Part shown: positions 4,494-61,649 of the stretch, in pieces
How the letters are laid out: each line of letters starts with the position of its first letter
Numbering within the stretch: the stretch's first letter is position 1
Assembly (NCBI GenBank): GCA_018263355.1
Contig: JAANXH010000054.1
Span: 2,779-66,778, forward strand
From: Candidatus Woesearchaeota archaeon
GTDB lineage: Archaea; Nanobdellota; Nanobdellia; Woesearchaeales; JAGVZT01
Direction of reading: 5' to 3'
Length of the DNA: 64,000 nucleotides
Notes under the pieces: model-generated
The model's input: the letters and a program-made list of their open reading frames with translations, nothing else
The model's database searches: none
Told to the model about the DNA's origin: nothing
Translations under genes and position numbers: made by a program

Positions 4494-4612
4494 AAAAAGT
4501 GGCACAGAGGCGTTAATACCCTACATCATGTCACTAACGTTCCTGACCTTAAGCATAGCTTAAGGCTTTGGTGTAGGGATTAGCCTCTGTTTTTGACCGC
4601 CACTTTTTCGGA
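4494..4612. repeat. structured repeat family B, copy 1 (nested inverted repeats AAAAAGTGG..CAGAGGC..core..GCCTCTG..CCACTTTTT)
   Basis: near-identical core catcatgtcactaacgttcctgacNttaagcatagcttaaggcttt shared with 33850-34007; compensatory pair ccctaca/tgtaggg vs ccccaca/tgtgggg. Confidence 0.6.
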
Positions 4613-4639: not shown

Positions 4640-4690
4640 GGAAATCAAAGATTTCCTTGAATTGAAAATCCCGCAAAGCGTGATTTTCAA
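4640..4690. repeat. hairpin module X (ggaaatcaaagatttcc + gaaaatc..gattttc) adjacent to family B
   Basis: reverse complement of 33783-33839; same ggaaatc-N-gatttcc hairpin recurs at 6150, 12470, 12592, 12850. Confidence 0.4.
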
Positions 4691-6002: not shown

Positions 6003-6202
6003 GGGACTCTCCAAGCCAGGGGCCAAACTTATTTGAACCAGCATGGAACTGAGAGTTCCACCTGAGTGTGCAAAAATCACTGATTTTTGAACACTTGAAA
6101 ACCTATGGTTTTCACGTGCATCAATCAGGCGCAATACCTGATTACACAGAAATCAAAGATTTATGTGTTAGGAAATCTCGGATTTCCTTTATGCGACCGC
6201 AC
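6003..6202 (-). ncRNA. candidate structured RNA or heavily interrupted tRNA-like gene
   Basis: GC-rich island in 500-nt intergenic gap; terminal 11-bp pairing GTGCagtGGTGCGG / CCGCACCGCAC; ends ..gagagtCCCGCCCGCACCG like the tRNA 3' exons found elsewhere; no clean cloverleaf found by eye. Confidence 0.2.
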
Positions 6203-12407: not shown

Positions 12408-12688
12408 TTACTCAGAATGCGTTGGGTCTAAATCCCCTGGCTGTCGGGAAGCATAGCTTCCTGAGCATGATCAGAAATCATAGATTTCTGACATTTAGCC
12501 CGTAGCATTATGAGTCTGAAAATCTGCTTATCAAAGTGAAGAGCGTAAAAGCTCCCACCTCTCAGAAATTTTAAATTTCTGATGATGGTTGCCAGAGCAA
12601 CCTATGAATGTTAATGAATATGATCAGAAAACTTTGTTTTCCGACATTTAGGTGGGAGATAAGATCTGAACAGCAGATTTTCTTTATA
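12408..12688. repeat. structured repeat family A, copy 1 (expanded by internal insertions)
   Basis: shares ttactcagaatgcgttgggtctaaa..gagtctgaaaatctgcttatcaaagtgaagagcgtaaaagc..ctgaacagcagattttcttta with 23741-23927 and 28964-29104; stem ctcccacct/aggtgggag covaries with cccccacct/aggtggggg. Confidence 0.7.
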
Positions 12689-12696
12689 AAATAAAA

Positions 12697-12982
12697 TGGG
12701 CTCAGAGGGACTTTCATAAACATTTAATTAAGCTAACCAAAGTTTTAACAATGCATTTGATTGTGTCGTGGTAATTTTGTGTTGATTATTCACCACGTAA
12801 AGGGACTTCAAGTCCCTTATGTTTTGGTCAAACCCAAGGAAAACATAGTTTTCCTGGCACAGGAAATTTTTGATTTCCCGGTGTTTTCTTAAAAGTTTGA
12901 TTTGAACCCTCGACCTATTAACCCAGTTTTAATAACTGTCTGGTTAAGAGCCAGTTGCTCTACCTAGCTAAGCTATGAGCCC
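12697..12982 (-). tRNA. intron-containing tRNA, anticodon CTT (Lys) inferred; about 190-nt intron after the T-loop plus extra insert 3' of anticodon arm
   Basis: 5' exon GGGCTCA ta GCTT AGCTAGGTA GAGC..CTGG CTCTTAA CCAG..GAGGG TTCAAAT; 3' exon CCCTC TGAGCCC A at 12697-12709 exactly complements T-stem and acceptor (12-nt match). Confidence 0.4.
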
Positions 12983-22146: not shown

Positions 22147-24078
22147 TTACTTCACGGTAACTGATTTTGCTAAGTTTCTGGGTTTGTCAGGATCTTTACC
22201 TAATTTTTTTGCTAGGTAATAAGCAAGCAATTGCATTGGTACAACATTTGCAATAGGTGAAGCATACCCACAGTCAGGAACCTTAATCCATTGATCAAAA
22301 ACTTCATTATCTTTTGGACTTACACCAATAATATGACCTCCTCTTGCTTTAACCTCTGCCGCGCTACTTAAAACAGCCATTTTATGTTCATCCTCTCCCA
22401 CAATAGCAATGCAAGGAGTAGCCTCTTCAATCAATGCAATTACACCATGCTTGAGTTCACCGCATGCAAAACCTTCTGCATGAATATAACTAATTTCTTT
22501 TATTTTCAAAGCTGATTCTAAAGCAATAGGATAATTAACACCCTTGCCAATAACATAAATGTGTTTCTTATTTTTTAGCTGATCTGCAATACGTTCAACA
22601 TTATTTAAAAAATCCTTATTAAGTAATTCTTTAATATTCTCTGCAGTATTTAGGATTAATTTTTTGCCCATTTCTTGCTTTCCTGCTAAAGTATAAGCCA
22701 GCATCAATAAAATTGCAATCTGTGAGGTAAATGCTTTTGTTGAAACAACAGAAATTTCTGGACCAGCATTCATTAGAATAGGATAATCTGAAATTCTGGT
22801 CAAACTTGAACCCATTACATTAACAATACTGGCTACTTTGGAATTATGTTTTTTTGCAGTCTCAACAGCATCTAGTGTGTCAGCAGTCTCACCACTTTGG
22901 CTAACTGCTATAACCAAGCTTTTGTCAGTAAGAAAATGTTGGTGATCAGAAAACTCGGAGCCTACTAAAAAATTAATATGTTTTTTGGCAATCTTAGAAA
23001 AATAATATGTGCCAAGTAATGCAGCATAACTTGCAGTACCGCATCCAATCAAAAAACTTCCATAAGCCTTATCAATAACTTTAGCCAGTTTTTTAACTTT
23101 TATACTATCCTGGACTGCAGAATCTTCTATAGTATCTGGTTGCTGCATTATTTCTTTGATTGTGTAGTTCTCGTAATCTCCCTTCTGTGCCTGCTCAACA
23201 TCCCAGTTAACAATTTCAATATCTTTCCTAATCTCCTTTCCAGTATTATCAAAAAACTCAATATTATTATTGATTTCTACACCTTCATCATTATCCAAAA
23301 AAACAATTTTGTTTGTATGCTCAATAAATGCAGGAATATCTGAAGCAATAAAATGACCCTTATCAGAAACACCAACAACAATTGGTGCACCCTTTCTAAT
23401 AGCAAACAATTTTTCACTAGGTTTATGAAATAACACAATTGCATTTCTTCCTTGAATAATATTACCAAGTTTGATTAAAGCGTTTCTTACCCCTAAAGAG
23501 CTATGCTCTTCAAGAAAATGAGCAATCACTTCTGTATCAGTATCAGATATAAATTTATGTTCTGAAAGTGTTTTTTTAATTTCCTGATAATTTTCAATAA
23601 TCCCATTGTGCACAACAATCATATCTTGGTTACAATCAGTTTGTGGATGAGCATTGTTCATAGTAACAGACCCATGTGTGGCCCATCTTGTGTGCCCTAA
23701 TGCAATATTACTTTTATCAAGTTTAACATCTGGATTAAAATTACTCAAAATGTCCAAGGGTCTAAAGCCCCGCCCTTTAGGGCGAGGACTTTTGAGTCTG
23801 AAAATCTGCGTGTCGAAGTGAAGAGCGTAAAAGCCCCCACCTTCAGGTGGGGGAATCAGTTGCCAGAGCAACTCAGAAACGAAGCAAAGCGAAGTGAGAT
23901 TAGCTCTGAACAGCAGATTCTCTTTACCTATCTTCCCTACTTTCTTGATTAGCTGCAGATCATTATCAAAAGTTGCAATTCCCCAAGAATCATAACCCCT
24001 GTACTCTAATCTTTTCAAACCTTCAATAACAATATCTGTTGCATTACCTTTTCCTTTATATGCTATTATACCACACAT
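22147..24078 (-). CDS. glmS: glutamine--fructose-6-phosphate aminotransferase (GlmS) carrying an about 62-aa in-frame insertion from repeat family A
   Basis: MCGI N-terminal nucleophile, HTRWATHG, two SIS domains, C-terminal KSVTV; insertion between GKIGKENL and LGHTRWATHG. Confidence 0.85.
   Translation of the reverse strand: MCGIIAYKGKGNATDIVIEGLKRLEYRGYDSWGIATFDNDLQLIKKVGKIGKENLLFRANLTSLCFVSELLWQLIPPPEGGGFYALHFDTQIFRLKSPRPKGRGFRPLDILSNFNPDVKLDKSNIALGHTRWATHGSVTMNNAHPQTDCNQDMIVVHNGIIENYQEIKKTLSEHKFISDTDTEVIAHFLEEHSSLGVRNALIKLGNIIQGRNAIVLFHKPSEKLFAIRKGAPIVVGVSDKGHFIASDIPAFIEHTNKIVFLDNDEGVEINNNIEFFDNTGKEIRKDIEIVNWDVEQAQKGDYENYTIKEIMQQPDTIEDSAVQDSIKVKKLAKVIDKAYGSFLIGCGTASYAALLGTYYFSKIAKKHINFLVGSEFSDHQHFLTDKSLVIAVSQSGETADTLDAVETAKKHNSKVASIVNVMGSSLTRISDYPILMNAGPEISVVSTKAFTSQIAILLMLAYTLAGKQEMGKKLILNTAENIKELLNKDFLNNVERIADQLKNKKHIYVIGKGVNYPIALESALKIKEISYIHAEGFACGELKHGVIALIEEATPCIAIVGEDEHKMAVLSSAAEVKARGGHIIGVSPKDNEVFDQWIKVPDCGYASPIANVVPMQLLAYYLAKKLGKDPDKPRNLAKSVTVK
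23741..23927. repeat. structured repeat family A, copy 2, inside glmS coding sequence (reverse orientation to gene, no stop codons in gene frame)
   Basis: ttactcaaaatgtccaagggtctaaagcccc..gagtctgaaaatctgc..gtgaagagcgtaaaagcccccaccttcaggtggggg..ctgaacagcagattctctttac. Confidence 0.7.
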
Positions 24079-28832: not shown

Positions 28833-28952
28833 TTTCAACTACTATGTGTTAGCATAATGCATGATTTAAGTGAAGGAGACAATCAGTTAAAAGTCAGGTT
28901 TTAACTCTTGCTTTAGCAAGTATGAAACGAGTAGTTTCTTTAGAGAACTTTG
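28833..28952. repeat. partial or rearranged copy of repeat family E in gatDE leader
   Basis: tcaactactatgtgttagc..tgatttaagtgaaggagacaa and tttagagaactttg match the two ends of the E element. Confidence 0.4.
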
Positions 28953-28963
28953 AAATACCCATT

Positions 28964-29104
28964 TTACTCAGAATGCGTTGGGTCTAAAGCCCCGGGCTTT
29001 AGCCCGCAGCATTATGAGTCTGAAAATCTGCTTATCAAAGTGAAGAGCGTAAAAGCCCCCTCCTTTAGGTGGGGGATCAGCTCTGAACAGCAGATTTTCT
29101 TTAC
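28964..29104. repeat. structured repeat family A, copy 3 (compact form)
   Basis: ttactcagaatgcgttgggtctaaagccccgggctttagccc..gagtctgaaaatctgcttatcaaagtgaagagcgtaaaagccccctcctttaggtggggg..ctgaacagcagattttctttac. Confidence 0.7.
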
Positions 29105-32934: not shown

Positions 32935-33120
32935 GGCAAAGTCACTGATCTGTGTTAGCTCCATAAATGCCTGATTTAAGTGAAGGAGACAACGATGATC
33001 GTAAGAGTCAGTGGGGGAACAGTTTGCCTTCTGTAAATAAAACTTAATGCAATATGAATGGGTTTTAGCAAACTGGCGACTGAACCTGCAATGTGGGGCT
33101 AACATTAACTTGACTTCGCC
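32935..33120. repeat. repeat family E, copy 1: about 186-nt element bounded by 13-bp terminal inverted repeats (ggcaaagtcaNtg / cNttgacttcgcc), MITE-like, in MFS gene leader
   Basis: about 90% identical to reverse complement of 42022-42210; shared context continues to caatattaATGAAA start. Confidence 0.6.
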
Positions 33121-33555: not shown

Positions 33556-33782
33556 ACTCTTTTATTTAAACTATTTACTTAAAAACTTTTCTATTAAGAT
33601 TCAGGCAGTGATACAATCTAGATTAATGAAGCGAGATCTACTTTTCGTTATTTGAAAATTTTACAGGTTTAATATGTCTGAAAAATGTTGTTTTTCTGAT
33701 CATCTCAGAAATCTTCAATTTCTAAGACCTCACATAATATCACTTAGGTTCCTAACTTTCAGCGTAGCTGAAAGCTTCAGTG

Positions 33783-33839
33783 TGAAATTTTCAATTCAAG
33801 GAAATCTTTGATTTCCTGAAAAGAAAATGTTTCACATTT
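33783..33839. repeat. hairpin module X, inverted copy, adjacent to family B copy 2
   Basis: gattttcaattcaaggaaatctttgatttcctg is reverse complement of 4640-4672. Confidence 0.4.
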
Positions 33840-33849
33840 TCAAGTTCCG

Positions 33850-34007
33850 AAAAAGTGGTAGTCAAAGCAGAGGCGACAATACCCCACATCATGTCACTAA
33901 CGTTCCTGACATTAAGCATAGCTTAAGGCTTTATTGTGGGGATTGGTTGGAAAGCGAAGCTTTACAACTCACTGAACACAGTGACCGTGAGCCTCTGCAC
34001 CACTTTT
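33850..34007. repeat. structured repeat family B, copy 2
   Basis: same core and nested stems as 4494-4612, with compensatory substitutions. Confidence 0.6.
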
Positions 34008-41078: not shown

Positions 41079-41097
41079 ATTTTCTACCTCCAAAATT

Positions 41098-41267
41098 TGG
41101 CCAGTGCTACAAATGGACTGATAGTGGTCAAAATTCGTCTGTGCCGTGGATGACATGAAATGACTTTTTTGTTATTCATGGCGGGGCCAGACGTAGTTTT
41201 TCTGCAGGAAAAACAGAGTAGGATTTTGAACCATATTAGTCACTCTGATACACTGCCAAAATTTGTA
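41098..41267 (-). promoter_or_regulatory. repeat family D copy 1: about 170-nt structured leader element immediately 5' of the HMA-DsbD_2 gene
   Basis: about 90% identical to 61399-61556 with compensatory changes (gccgtgg/tcatggc vs gccatgg/tcgtggc; GGCAGTG/CACTGGCC vs GGCGGTG/CACTGCC). Confidence 0.55.
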
Positions 41268-42021: not shown

Positions 42022-42210
42022 GGCAAAGTCAACTTAATTGTGGAAAGCCCCATAATACCGGTTCAGTCGCCAGTTTGCTAAACTCTCCTTGATATTGTAT
42101 TAAGTCATATTAATAGACGGCAAACTGTTCCCACTGACTCTTACGATCATCGTTGTCTCCTTCACTTAACTCAGGCATTAATGGAGCTAACACAGAGTAG
42201 TTGACTTTGC
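42022..42210. repeat. repeat family E, copy 2: MITE-like element with perfect 13-bp terminal inverted repeats ggcaaagtcaact/agttgactttgcc, in EamA gene leader
   Basis: inverted copy of 32935-33120; same orientation relative to downstream gene as copy 1. Confidence 0.6.
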
Positions 42211-48787: not shown

Positions 48788-51184
48788 ATGTTAGAAAAAA
48801 TACTTAATAAATCGTATAAAACAGTAATCTCAGCATTTCCCACACCAAGTAAGGGGAAGCTTCATGCAGGTAATCTGAGAGGTATATTAATTCAAGATTA
48901 TTTAGCAAGGTTTTCTAATCTGGCAGGACAAGATACTTTTTTTCCATTTGGACTTCATCCCACAGGATTTCCAACATTTGGTCATGTTGAAACTGTTTTG
49001 TCTGATCTTGCGTATGGAACAGATGACCTTAGAAGATTTTTTTGGGATTCTGGTGACCTTGATACACTAATAAGACAATTTCCTGATATTATAGATATCT
49101 CGAGAGAGTATGGCGAGTTAAATGCAAAACTGGAAGCAGCTCAAGCTGATTCAGAAGAGATTTTGCATGAATTAGAATTACAAAAAGCAGATTTAATTCA
49201 CCAAGCAGCACTACCTGTTGTAAATTTTGTTGGGTCTAAAATGATTAGAGATCTTGAACTGTACAATGTAGATACCTCTCAGTTTGATGGAACATTTCTT
49301 ACAACAATAACTCCTTGGTATCAAGAATTTACTAAATGGTGGGTTGATAATTTGTATGAAGCTGGATTTATTAATTTTCTTGAGTCAGAAATGGGATATT
49401 GTTCTTTGTGTGATAGAACAAAAGAAGTGACATCTGATATGGATGAAGTTATTGCTGCTAATTTAGATAGCTTAAGAATTATTGGCTCACCAGAAAATAG
49501 AAGATTCAATGGAGATGTATATTGTAAAGTGTCTGGGCATAGAAATCATCTGCTTGATGTTGTCACTTCTGAAGGTTGGAAATTTATATACAATGCAGAA
49601 CTGAAAGGGGGTAAGACTCTTGCAGACTTAACCAGTGAGATGATTAGTCAAAAAGATGTGTTTATTCTGCCTAAAACTTTTCAGAACAGTATTCACTCAC
49701 TTTTTGCTAGCAGAGAACCAAAAAATATTCAAAGAGATTACTGTGAAGGACTTGGAACAGAAAGTAGGTTTTCAGATGAAGAAAATCCAATGGTAATGGG
49801 ACCTTTGATGGATAGTAATGGATACTTTTTCATGTTTGCTGTTGCAAAAGCAATATATTCTGGCTCAATTCCAGCAGACAAAGTTAATGGAGAATTCTTT
49901 GATTATGTATTGAGAACAAATCAGCAGTTAAGACAAAGAGGTTTTAAGGTCAGAAACCTCAAAGGGCGTTTGGAAAGAAAACTAGGAGTAAAAGCCTCAA
50001 CATTAAGTAATGTAAAAGAAGAGTTGCATACTAGGTTCTCTGATTGGATAAACATAATGGGTTGGGATCATAGTCAAGCTCATGCTTTGTTTAGCAATAT
50101 GCAAATTGCAGCCCAGGATCTGGGACACCTTATGCAAAATACCTTGCTTGCTTATGGAACTGTCCAGGATGCAAAAGGCCAAAAAATGGGTAAGTCTCTT
50201 GGTAATGCAGTATCCATTGACCAAATATTAGATATAGCAGAAGATAGGACTTCAATCAGATTCAAAAGATATGGGTTTGATTCTGAAAAAAGTGCAGCAG
50301 ATGTTGCAAGATTATATCTGCTTGGAAAAGAAAATCCTGTTAAGGACTTAAGATTTGATTCACAAGCTCTTGAAAGATTTGGAGAAACATTACTCTGGGT
50401 TATTGACCAATTCGAAACATATAAACCACAAGGAAAATTCCCACATGAAGACAATATTGATATGTGGTTAATGTCTAAAGTAAGAATGAGAATTGAATCT
50501 GTTGCTGAGTTGAACACAGACTTAAAAATCCACAAATCTTATGAAGAACTATTTTTTGACCAGCAAGGACGTATGTTGGATGATATTGCTCAATACCATA
50601 GGATGAAATCTGACTCTGATCTTAAAACAAATAGAGTAATAATTAAAAAGTATTGGCAGGCATTTGCTCAGTTAGCAAGTCCTTTTATACCTTATGTTGC
50701 TGGTCAAATTGGCAGGCAAGTTGGATTAAAACCCAATAACCAAAATAGGCCAGGAGATCTAATCACAGATTTTGAAAGAAACATAGAGCTTGAACAGATT
50801 GTTGATCTGTCAGGAGGTAATTTTAATTATGAAACTATAAGCGCTGAGGATAAAAAGAGATTAGCTCCAGTATGGAGAGACTATGCTGGAGAAGTCGCAA
50901 AACAATTGACAATAAGATTGAGTAAAGAAGTTTTAGGTGAGAGAAAAGAATTACAGCACGTGAATATACGTGTTCAAGATCAAGTAATTGCAGAAATCTT
51001 AGGACAAGAATTAGAGCTTGTTGATGTGTATGATTATTTAAAGCTAACAAGCGGAGCTTCACGTGGTTTAAGAACACACCTGCGTGAAAAAAACCCAGAT
51101 GAAAAATATCCTCACGTTGATTTGATTATTAATGATGTGCCGCAAGGCACAACTTATGAGATTGAGCCAGTCTATGCTAACTGA
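48788..51184 (+). CDS. class I aminoacyl-tRNA synthetase, LeuRS-like, with divergent HIGH motif (start moved to MLEKILNK)
   Basis: FPTPSKGKLHAGNLRG (HIGH-like, second His replaced by Asn); QKMGKSLGN (KMSKS); about 798 aa; TGA stop. Confidence 0.6.
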   Translation: MLEKILNKSYKTVISAFPTPSKGKLHAGNLRGILIQDYLARFSNLAGQDTFFPFGLHPTGFPTFGHVETVLSDLAYGTDDLRRFFWDSGDLDTLIRQFPDIIDISREYGELNAKLEAAQADSEEILHELELQKADLIHQAALPVVNFVGSKMIRDLELYNVDTSQFDGTFLTTITPWYQEFTKWWVDNLYEAGFINFLESEMGYCSLCDRTKEVTSDMDEVIAANLDSLRIIGSPENRRFNGDVYCKVSGHRNHLLDVVTSEGWKFIYNAELKGGKTLADLTSEMISQKDVFILPKTFQNSIHSLFASREPKNIQRDYCEGLGTESRFSDEENPMVMGPLMDSNGYFFMFAVAKAIYSGSIPADKVNGEFFDYVLRTNQQLRQRGFKVRNLKGRLERKLGVKASTLSNVKEELHTRFSDWINIMGWDHSQAHALFSNMQIAAQDLGHLMQNTLLAYGTVQDAKGQKMGKSLGNAVSIDQILDIAEDRTSIRFKRYGFDSEKSAADVARLYLLGKENPVKDLRFDSQALERFGETLLWVIDQFETYKPQGKFPHEDNIDMWLMSKVRMRIESVAELNTDLKIHKSYEELFFDQQGRMLDDIAQYHRMKSDSDLKTNRVIIKKYWQAFAQLASPFIPYVAGQIGRQVGLKPNNQNRPGDLITDFERNIELEQIVDLSGGNFNYETISAEDKKRLAPVWRDYAGEVAKQLTIRLSKEVLGERKELQHVNIRVQDQVIAEILGQELELVDVYDYLKLTSGASRGLRTHLREKNPDEKYPHVDLIINDVPQGTTYEIEPVYAN

Positions 51185-61371: not shown

Positions 61372-61398
61372 ATACTCACCCCATTTAATTCTTAGTTT

Positions 61399-61556
61399 GG
61401 CAGTGTTACAAATAGACTGATGGTGGTCAAAATTCGTCTGTGCCATGGATGACATGAAATAACCTTTTTGTTATTCGTGGCAGGGCCAGACGTAGTTTTT
61501 CTGCAGGAAAAACAGAGTAGGATTTTGAACAATATCAGTCACTCTGATACACCGCC
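61399..61556 (-). promoter_or_regulatory. repeat family D copy 2: structured leader element 5' of mscL
   Basis: see 41098-41267; GGTGAG Shine-Dalgarno-like 5 nt upstream of ATG at 61371. Confidence 0.55.
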
Positions 61557-61649
61557 TTAACTTGACATTGCCTGTCTTATGTATCACTACAAAATGCTAA
61601 AATTTATATATCAGTGTATCTTTTTGTAAACTACAAAAAAGAGGTTATA

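Follow-up and report, generated by a model that had tools for sequence, protein, structure and literature searches.

What kind of element is Family A, a repeat found in a 64,000-nt stretch of a metagenome-assembled genome from Candidatus Woesearchaeota, a DPANN archaeon? The original prediction was made from the largest copy in this stretch (hereafter the window; 32% G+C, densely coding) and described a modular, expandable family under RNA-level structural constraint, possibly a non-coding RNA (ncRNA) family or a ribozyme-like mobile element. We found that Family A is a known sort of element and not a novel RNA gene or ribozyme. It is likely a non-autonomous member of the IS200/IS605 family, IS608-like subgroup, that is, a palindrome-associated transposable element (PATE). 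Its anatomy, its likeness to IS608-type ends, a presence/absence polymorphism and an insertion into glmS were all observed directly.

Repeat finding and alignment gave three copies of Family A, all on the plus strand. The minimal form is copy 3 (28964-29104; 141 nt, net 137 nt), which lies between gatD on the minus strand and a 107-aa open reading frame (ORF) on the plus strand. Copy 2 (23741-23927, 187 nt) lies inside glmS, where it adds net 183 nt, or 61 codons, at 23745-23927; it carries an extra segment of 46 nt after hairpin 2 (23855-23900). The largest copy, copy 1, is a conserved block of 280 nt running from TTAC to TTAT at 12408-12687; the start that had been predicted was correct, whereas the predicted end, 12688, was 1 nt too far. 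Its net inserted DNA is 276 nt, corresponding to 12411-12686 if cleavage occurs after TTA and to 12412-12687 if it occurs after TTAC. When the three copies are aligned, copy 1 corresponds to the minimal 141-nt copy with two added inserts of 52 nt and 87 nt, confirming that it is an expanded copy of a repeat family. The cores are 91.6% identical between copies 1 and 3, 84.5% between copies 2 and 3, and 78.5% between copies 1 and 2. Family A has no gene of its own: at 137-276 nt the elements are too short for a transposase, and the open frames inside them are read-through only. The genes around them are ordinary housekeeping genes (among them a DRG GTPase, a glmS-glmM-glmU cluster, gatD/E, and transporters).

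Each copy contains two subterminal hairpins in direct orientation, of the form AAAG-CCCCnnnC-TTTA-.... In copy 3 these are AAAG-CCCCGGGC-TTTA-GCCCG and AAAG-CCCCCTCC-TTTA-GGTGGGGG, and in copy 2 they are AAAG-CCCCGCCC-TTTA-GGGCG and AAAG-CCCCCACC-TTCA-GGTGGGGG. In copy 1, the left guide position and the 8-nt 5' arm of hairpin 1 (CCCCTGGC) occupy 12430-12441, and its TTTA loop and 3' arm GCCCG occupy 12494-12502; the right guide AAAG with the 8-nt 5' arm of hairpin 2 (CTCCCACC) is at 12548-12559, followed by the TTTA loop and 3' arm GGTGGGAG at 12647-12658. Over guide, arm, and loop, hairpins 1 and 2 agree at 14/17 and 15/18 positions. Conserved features are the AAAG guide (AAAT at the left in copy 1), the foot CCCC, an arm of 8 nt, a TTTA or TTCA loop, and TTA(C) at either end. 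Every intact copy has the pattern AAAGCCCCnnnnTTYAG two times in direct orientation, and the motif AAAGCCCCNNNNTTYAG has five matches in the window (0.12 expected), exclusively in Family A. In the predicted folds, helix P1 (5' strand ACTCAGAATGC, 12410-12420, paired with GCATTATGAGT at 12505-12515) encloses hairpin 1, and helix P2 (5' strand GAAAATCTGC, 12518-12527, paired with GCAGATTTTC at 12673-12682) encloses the right-hand domain.

At the left junction, all three copies have TTAC, a candidate target and left cleavage tetranucleotide (12408-12411 in copy 1). The right terminus is CTTTAT in copy 1 (12682-12687) and CTTTAC in copies 2 and 3, so that the last four bases are TTAT and TTAC, respectively, and TTA flanks both sides of every copy. 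Because TTAC precedes the copies and the element itself ends in TTA(C/T), a duplication of 3-4 bp is indistinguishable from none.

These features were compared with those of IS608, which is cleaved 3' of TTAC, 19 nt 5' of the left hairpin foot, and inserts 3' of TTAC with a preferred context of TTAC|C; the guides directly 5' of the hairpin feet, AAAG for the left end and GAAT for the right, specify the cleavage sites (PMC3201880; PMC5934647). The IS608 hairpins are CCCCTAGC-TTTA-GCTATGGGG at the right end and CCCCTAGC-TTTTA-GCTATGGGG at the left end, and in loops of this type a T9-A12 pair stands beside a TT loop, for which TC is a natural variant and CT has never been seen (bioRxiv 10.1101/2024.12.22.630000). 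Like IS608, Family A lacks inverted terminal repeats and has two subterminal imperfect hairpins on one strand, with CCCC plus 4 nt, an 8-nt arm, and a TTTA loop followed by G at position 13. It also has AAAG on the 5' side of the foot, at both hairpins in copies 2 and 3, has TTAC as its left junction sequence, and has a comparable left spacing from TTAC to the foot (22-23 nt; 19 nt in IS608). The TC loop variant present in the natural ends of ISDra2 is likewise present in copy 2. Unlike IS608, Family A has no tnpA or tnpB and a minimal form of only 137 nt, combines AAAG with TTAC at both ends (in IS608 the left end has AAAG/TTAC and the right end GAAT/TCAA), contains the extra helices P1 and P2, and resides in a DPANN archaeon. 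The conserved features are the recognition features of the single-stranded DNA substrates of IS608-type TnpA transposases, and the pattern of variation, with guide, foot, and loop fixed and the mid-stem covarying, fits recognition by shape.

Hairpins of the same type were recovered from bacterial plasmids. In a blastn search of copy 3 against 72,556 plasmids, the matches covered the hairpin 2 region only, and every one of them lay at the end of a TnpB element. For Paraclostridium sordellii pCS1-6, the matched left end (CGTAAAA-CCCCCTCC-TTTA-GGTGTGGGG) is located 70 nt upstream of an annotated TnpB gene, and the right end, GAAT-CCCCTTGCTTTAGCTATGGGG-AGAATG-TCAA, is almost identical to that of IS608. 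In Pseudomonas silesiensis pPL1, the right end (GAAG-CCCCCTCCTTTAGGTGGGGG-AGGATG-TCAC) directly follows a 513-aa ORF that resembles OrfB_IS605 at scores just under the Pfam cut-offs. The plasmid hairpins (CCCCCTCC-TTTA-GGTG(T)GGGG; L028, 2505-2530 and 3866-3903; L035, 2498-2533) are nearly identical to hairpin 2. Because the TnpB-element ends on these two bacterial plasmids match, the hairpin type spans bacteria and a DPANN archaeon. The practical outcome is a recognition rule: a pair of AAAG-CCCC...TTTA hairpins in direct orientation, together with a TTA(C) junction, marks the ends of an IS608-type single-strand transposon.

Short elements with such ends are already known. PATEs lack inverted terminal repeats, carry near-terminal palindromes, and cause no target duplication (PMC3119063), and PATE-like elements have been noted in Geobacillus stearothermophilus (PMC10055086). 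Family A resembles the PATEs of Haloquadratum walsbyi and G. stearothermophilus in being too short for a transposase, in lacking inverted terminal repeats, in having palindromes near its termini that are alike and similar to those of the IS605 type, and in its strain-specific presence or absence (PMC3119063; PMC10055086). The likeness is one of anatomy; Family A has three copies in 64 kb, and one of them is translated within a housekeeping gene. A second comparison is with the repetitive extragenic palindromes (REP) and bacterial interspersed mosaic elements (BIME) associated with RAYT (TnpA-REP) proteins, which are likewise single-stranded DNA hairpins for Y1 HUH proteins with a conserved tetranucleotide beside the hairpin. 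REPs are single palindromes of 20-40 nt that usually start with GTAG or CGTC and are clustered, whereas Family A is two-ended with defined junctions.

That Family A is a mobile element and not a simple DNA repeat, as had been proposed, is demonstrated directly by an empty site of copy 1 and was further borne out by the glmS insertion described below. In Logan contig L003 from the same organism (SRR10589504_51749, 1-60), the 3' exon of the neighboring tRNA-Lys gene joins the upstream region of the DRG gene without the 276 nt, giving the junction ...CCCTCTGAGCCCATTTTATTTTA|TAATATATC..., which is ambiguous within TTA. Contig L001 and the window represent the filled allele, and contig L002 stops exactly at the copy 1 junction, as expected at a branch of the assembly graph. 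Across 2.7 kb, only 2-5 sites distinguish the empty from the filled haplotypes (99.8% identity), and L003 and L001 have three single-nucleotide polymorphisms (SNPs) in common. This pattern suggests a recent precise loss or gain of copy 1; an alternative is an old polymorphism in a recombining population. Logan contigs also break about 30 nt inside copies 2 and 3, as in short-read assembly of a multi-copy repeat. Family A thus breaks short-read assemblies, and the window documents that a Woesearchaeota (DPANN) genome contains IS200/IS605-type non-autonomous elements with recent activity or recent loss.

Several observations weigh against the assignment to the IS608-like subgroup. Only three copies are available, and for that reason nothing is statistically strong. 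The right cleavage site lies between 25 nt (copy 3) and 71 nt (copy 2) beyond hairpin 2, compared with 10 nt in IS608. Neither tnpA nor tnpB was found with Pfam among the 40 window ORFs scanned, and the Pfam labels of the Logan contigs add none. All copies lie on the C-rich strand; if GC skew marks the leading strand, the opposite orientation would be expected. Haplotypes 0.2% apart were apparently separated by the gain or precise loss of copy 1, in which both hairpins are interrupted, and this is awkward if interrupted hairpins are inactive. Lastly, the empty allele reads ATATTA|TAAAAT, whereas the IS608 rule, under which cleavage is 3' of TTAC and TTAC is kept, predicts ATATTAC|AAAAT. The empty allele therefore suggests cleavage after TTA and not after TTAC (element 12411-12686, target WTTA), or else a TTA duplication or a SNP.

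The same alleles fit exactly a 3-bp duplication of TTA, the target duplication expected if Family A were a classical miniature inverted-repeat element mobilized by a DDE transposase of the IS5 or PIF-Harbinger type, and the TTA on both sides of all three copies agrees with this. We nevertheless consider a DDE origin very unlikely. Terminal inverted repeats are absent, the best 20-nt end-to-end match being 8-10/20, which was equalled by 131-459 of 500 shuffles; the subterminal hairpins are in direct and not in inverted orientation; IS608-type ends have matching guide, foot, and loop; and the sole database matches are ends of TnpB elements. A miniature element of the terminal-inverted-repeat type was rejected for lack of such repeats.

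The second line of evidence for mobility is copy 2. The glmS ORF (22147-24078, minus strand) reads through this copy in frame and without a stop, and its product of 643 aa exceeds those of the seven closest Woesearchaeota-type orthologues (586-591 aa, 63-71% identical). Neither these orthologues nor E. coli GlmS contain the approximately 60 additional residues. Removing the 183 nt yields KIG-NFNPD-VKL, compared with IG-DFKAEE-VKL in the orthologues, and the inferred target site is TTAC|C, the integration context favored by IS608. Since 183 nt is a multiple of three and 137 nt is not, only the longer copy 2 keeps the frame of glmS. The filled glmS allele was also present in two further samples, SRR10589499 and SRR10589504, one haplotype carrying a SNP, and the GlmS protein is 100% identical to an NCBI protein annotated at 643 aa, an annotation that the insertion inflates. 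In an AlphaFold model of the 643-aa protein, the predicted local distance difference test score (pLDDT) was >90 almost throughout and <50 at residues 58-116, which lie between a strand at 41-47 and a strand at 125-131. From this position, the insert is predicted to be an excursion between secondary-structure elements and not a disruption; the low pLDDT is expected, as no homologue covers the insert.

In-frame hairpin repeats have a precedent in the Rickettsia palindromic elements (RPE) of Ogata et al. 2000, reportedly short hairpin repeats that are inserted in frame in protein genes and read through as peptide. Copy 2 resembles them as a hairpin repeat in frame in a coding gene, contributing 61 residues to GlmS. 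In contrast to RPEs, which are bacterial, unrelated in sequence, and devoid of IS608-type ends, Family A has only one of its three copies in a gene.

An insertion in an apparently essential gene that is kept in several samples would also be explained if Family A were removed from RNA, as a self-splicing or endonuclease-spliced intron or a ribozyme-like element. Removal would account both for its tolerance in glmS and for the site of copy 1 beside an intron-rich tRNA gene; tRNA introns occur at non-canonical positions in this genome, and the minus-strand copy, as read from its sequence, starts with GUAAAG and is followed by ...AG shortly after its end. The remaining evidence makes such removal extremely improbable. 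In a scan for the bulge-helix-bulge motif, in which a 4-bp helix separates two bulges of 3 nt, the glmS junctions scored 9, a value reached by 36% of random pairs, whereas a 22-nt intron of the tRNA gene, used as positive control, scored 11; a bulge-helix-bulge intron was rejected on these scores. The two ends of the element fold as separate domains without pairing with each other. No ribozyme or intron family of Rfam matched, the element is too small for a group I or group II intron, and copies 1 and 3 lie between genes. In glmS, the insertion amounts to exactly 61 codons and has no stop, as for read-through translation.

Whether the secondary structure is constrained as RNA was a separate matter. 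Folding was far more stable than that of shuffled sequences in every copy (z from -4.8 to -8.5) on either strand and as RNA or DNA. For copy 3, the folding energy was -64 kcal/mol as RNA (z = -7.2) and -36.5 kcal/mol as DNA (z = -7.4), and the complementary strand was equally good; the fold consists of two domains, with P1 around hairpin 1, and P2 around an internal loop, a 5-bp helix, and hairpin 2. Changes of both partners were seen in only 3 of 44 pairs, a number equalled by 26 of 500 column shuffles, and covariation statistics have no power with three sequences. All three compensatory pairs are in the two transposase-type hairpins; one is in copy 1, where a G-to-A change in the 3' arm of hairpin 2 compensates a C-to-T change in the 5' arm (C-G to T-A). 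The mid-stem changes are GGGC/GCCC to GCCC/GGGC and CCCC/GGGG to CTCC/GGAG. No compensatory change was seen in P1 or P2, and copy 1 has three broken pairs. The earlier statement that ends and stems are retained with compensatory changes holds for the structure; the covariation behind it is thin. Counts of G-U versus A-C pairs favored neither strand. No Rfam 15 family matched at gathering scores in the window, and the matches around the copies were at chance level (E up to 10).

These results support a functional constraint on the secondary structure, which is not a chance by-product of a simple repeat. The earlier suggestion placed this constraint on RNA, where it need not act: both strands fold equally well, and what is conserved are DNA features of the TnpA type. 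Nothing points to a ribozyme or an ncRNA gene; with Rfam empty and no bulge-helix-bulge motif beyond chance at the glmS junctions, Family A is no longer a candidate for either.

One form of RNA-level constraint would be compatible with a PATE and would add to it. PATEs often encode omega-RNAs that act with the TnpB of another element (PMC10055086), and the right-hand domain of Family A could be the scaffold of such a TnpB guide RNA, transcribed from the plus strand into the 3' flank and serving in trans a TnpB encoded elsewhere. The domain, made up of P2, a GUGA/CUGA internal loop, and hairpin 2, is about 83 nt long and well structured, ends 5 nt before the element boundary, and contains a candidate tandem G-A or k-turn-like loop, read from the sequence as GUGA-AGAGC...GCUCU-GAAC; a weak C/D-box match (28 bits, with a gathering score of 48) points in the same direction. 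We regard a functional guide RNA as unlikely. P2 and the inner helix show breaks only and no compensatory change, the pair counts are neutral as to strand, and neither an Rfam family nor a TnpB among the window ORFs was found. The surrounding genes run antisense to all three copies, so that read-through transcription gives the other strand. A C/D-box small RNA was rejected as well, since the 28-bit match is below threshold and the order of the boxes is unsuited.

Taking Family A as an IS608-like element, a Y1 (HUH) TnpA encoded elsewhere would bind both hairpins on the single-stranded plus (top) strand, excise this strand as a circle, and re-insert it 3' of TTA(C) in single-stranded DNA. The junction of the excision circle would be expected to read ...TTTCTTTA|CTCAGAATG... 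or ...CTTTAC|TCAGAATG.... P1 would join the bases that immediately follow the left cleavage site to bases 3' of hairpin 1, and P2 the bases 5' of the right guide to those just before the right cleavage site, so that the two helices would bring far cleavage sites to the hairpin feet. Such a role would provide a DNA-level explanation for why P1 and P2 are conserved, and the 46-nt segment of copy 2 may be tolerated in the P2 loop because P2 brings the right cleavage site to the hairpin.

The original prediction also called the family modular and expandable, with two large insertions and AT-rich hairpins inside the conserved hairpins of copy 1. Both insertions and three AT-rich hairpins were located. 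Insert 1 (12442-12493, 52 nt, plus strand) has the ends TGTCGGGAA...TTTCTGACA, shows no target duplication, and consists of two hairpins, GGGAAGC-ATA-GCTTCC and CAGAAATC-ATA-GATTTCTG. Insert 2 (12560-12646, 87 nt, plus strand) has the ends TCTCAGAAA...TTTCCGACA and contains two AT-rich hairpins and a GGTTGCCAGAGCAACC hairpin; the latter, also written GTTGCCAGAGCAAC, recurs in the 46-nt segment of copy 2. The AT-rich hairpins are CAGAAATC-ATA-GATTTCTG at 12472-12490, CAGAAATT-TTA-AATTTCTG at 12563-12581, and CAGAAAAC-TTT-GTTTTCCG at 12625-12643. In both hairpins of copy 1, the insert is located in the apical loop, exactly between arm position 8 and the TTTA loop (T9). The two inserts are related: both begin with T(G/C)TC(G/A)G(G/A)AA and finish with ATGATCAGAAAnC...GnTTTCyGACA, and the last 32 nt of insert 1 match insert 2 at 25 positions. 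Their ends match in inverted orientation at 8/14 positions (TSTCRGRAA...TTYCYGACA), again without target duplication. No other copies of the inserts were found in the window, where the conserved 3' part of 27 nt is confined to these two.

A similar arrangement has been described for the SMR-A repeats of Haloquadratum, which measure some 110 bp, possess inverted ends, create no duplication, and enter PATEs and IS605 elements inside their near-terminal palindromes (PMC3119063). The inserts of copy 1 resemble SMR-A (HqIRS42/43/55) in being short, in having inverted ends without target duplication, and in lying inside near-terminal palindromes of a PATE. They differ in length (52 and 87 nt, against about 110 bp) and in the weakness of their inverted ends; only two copies were seen, both within copy 1, and the likeness is one of described features. 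On this comparison, copy 1 is most likely a composite in which each hairpin loop of a Family A element was entered at the same position by a second small repeat, presumably by transposition. The extra segments are thus real, and, because the inserts match the features of SMR-A, the expandability is most likely that of an element hit by another repeat. Copy 1 also looks decayed, with its AAAT left guide, its last base T, and its three broken pairs. Family A includes one copy that is read through as 61 residues of GlmS and one whose two recognition hairpins were both hit by a second repeat, the pattern previously described for Haloquadratum.

Only the generic AT-rich hairpin of the inserts recurs elsewhere in the window. 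The pattern GAAAWY-NNN-RWTTTC occurs nine times (0.57 expected), at 4641, 6172, 12474, 12565, 12627, 12839, 12863, 33708, and 33801, and all of these sites are non-coding and structured, belonging to the Family A inserts, the tRNA-Lys intron, the loci of a second repeat family (Family B), and a unit at 6146-6192. This last unit is 47 nt long and consists of two AT-rich hairpins, with TTAC before it and TTTAT at its end. A bolder interpretation, which we consider distinctly improbable, is that the inserts form a separate class of tiny mobile elements that homes to the apical loops of TnpA hairpins, always at arm position 8/T9 (3' of CTAAA on the other strand), and leaves the composite mobile. 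The hairpin loops would then be true sites of expansion, and the AT-rich modules, because they also occur in the 190-nt T-loop intron of the tRNA-Lys gene and in other repeat families, could be raw material for the long non-canonical tRNA introns of this DPANN lineage.

Beyond the three copies, little of Family A was recovered. A covariance model (R1) built from the cores found the three copies and no further one in the window, with only a partial end in Logan contig L001. Scans of genome and metagenome contig collections with the pattern AGTGAAGAGCGTAAAAGC gave only single matches, which were checked and are unrelated, and two pattern scans of viral contigs gave no match. A profile search with the minus-frame peptide found no more copies, and the sole match of the plus-frame peptide among 1.8 billion representatives was an unrelated repeat protein of the Mib/Herc2 type.

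Copy 1 had been reported to abut the 3' exon of a tRNA-Lys-like gene, and the neighbor is a real tRNA-Lys(CTT) gene (12697-12982, minus strand). It lies outside the element, its 3' end at 12697 being 9 nt from the copy 1 end at 12687. ARAGORN recognized it once introns of 22 nt (12918-12939) and 190 nt (12710-12899) were removed; otherwise, ARAGORN and Rfam at gathering scores miss it, and neither detects any RNA gene in the window. Both introns are at non-canonical positions. The 22-nt intron, at 42/43, has a good bulge-helix-bulge motif, and the 190-nt intron, in the T-loop, matches the relaxed motif only and consists of hairpins in series, among them two of the GAAAWY-NNN-RWTTTC type. The adjacency of copy 1 looks incidental, because in the empty allele the target is an ordinary T-rich trailer.

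Other repeats were noted in the window. The structured Family B (4499-4610, 33714-33790, and 33857-34000) has nested helices AAAAAGTGG / CAGAGGC / ACCCYACA around a CCTTAAGC-ATA-GCTTAAGG hairpin and lacks hairpins of the IS608 type; it is also expandable, as its copy at 33857-34000 has an internal insertion of 48 nt. A 169-nt repeat (41097-41265 and 61396-61564, 91% identical) with inverted ends TTTGGCAGTG...CACTGCCAAA resembles a classical miniature inverted-repeat element, and Logan contigs L023-L027 all break within it, at 61501. A repeat of about 157 nt occurs at 32944-33100 and 42046-42201, in opposite orientations and 9 kb apart, with 94% identity over 72 nt and 84-89% thereafter; a 28-nt fragment of it (28855-28882) is found about 80 nt upstream of Family A copy 3, and Rfam gave no match to this repeat. 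Apart from repeats, an ORF at 48788-51184 (plus strand) encodes a class I aminoacyl-tRNA synthetase-like protein of 798 aa, in which the Pfam tRNA-synt_1 match is confined to residues 410-523.

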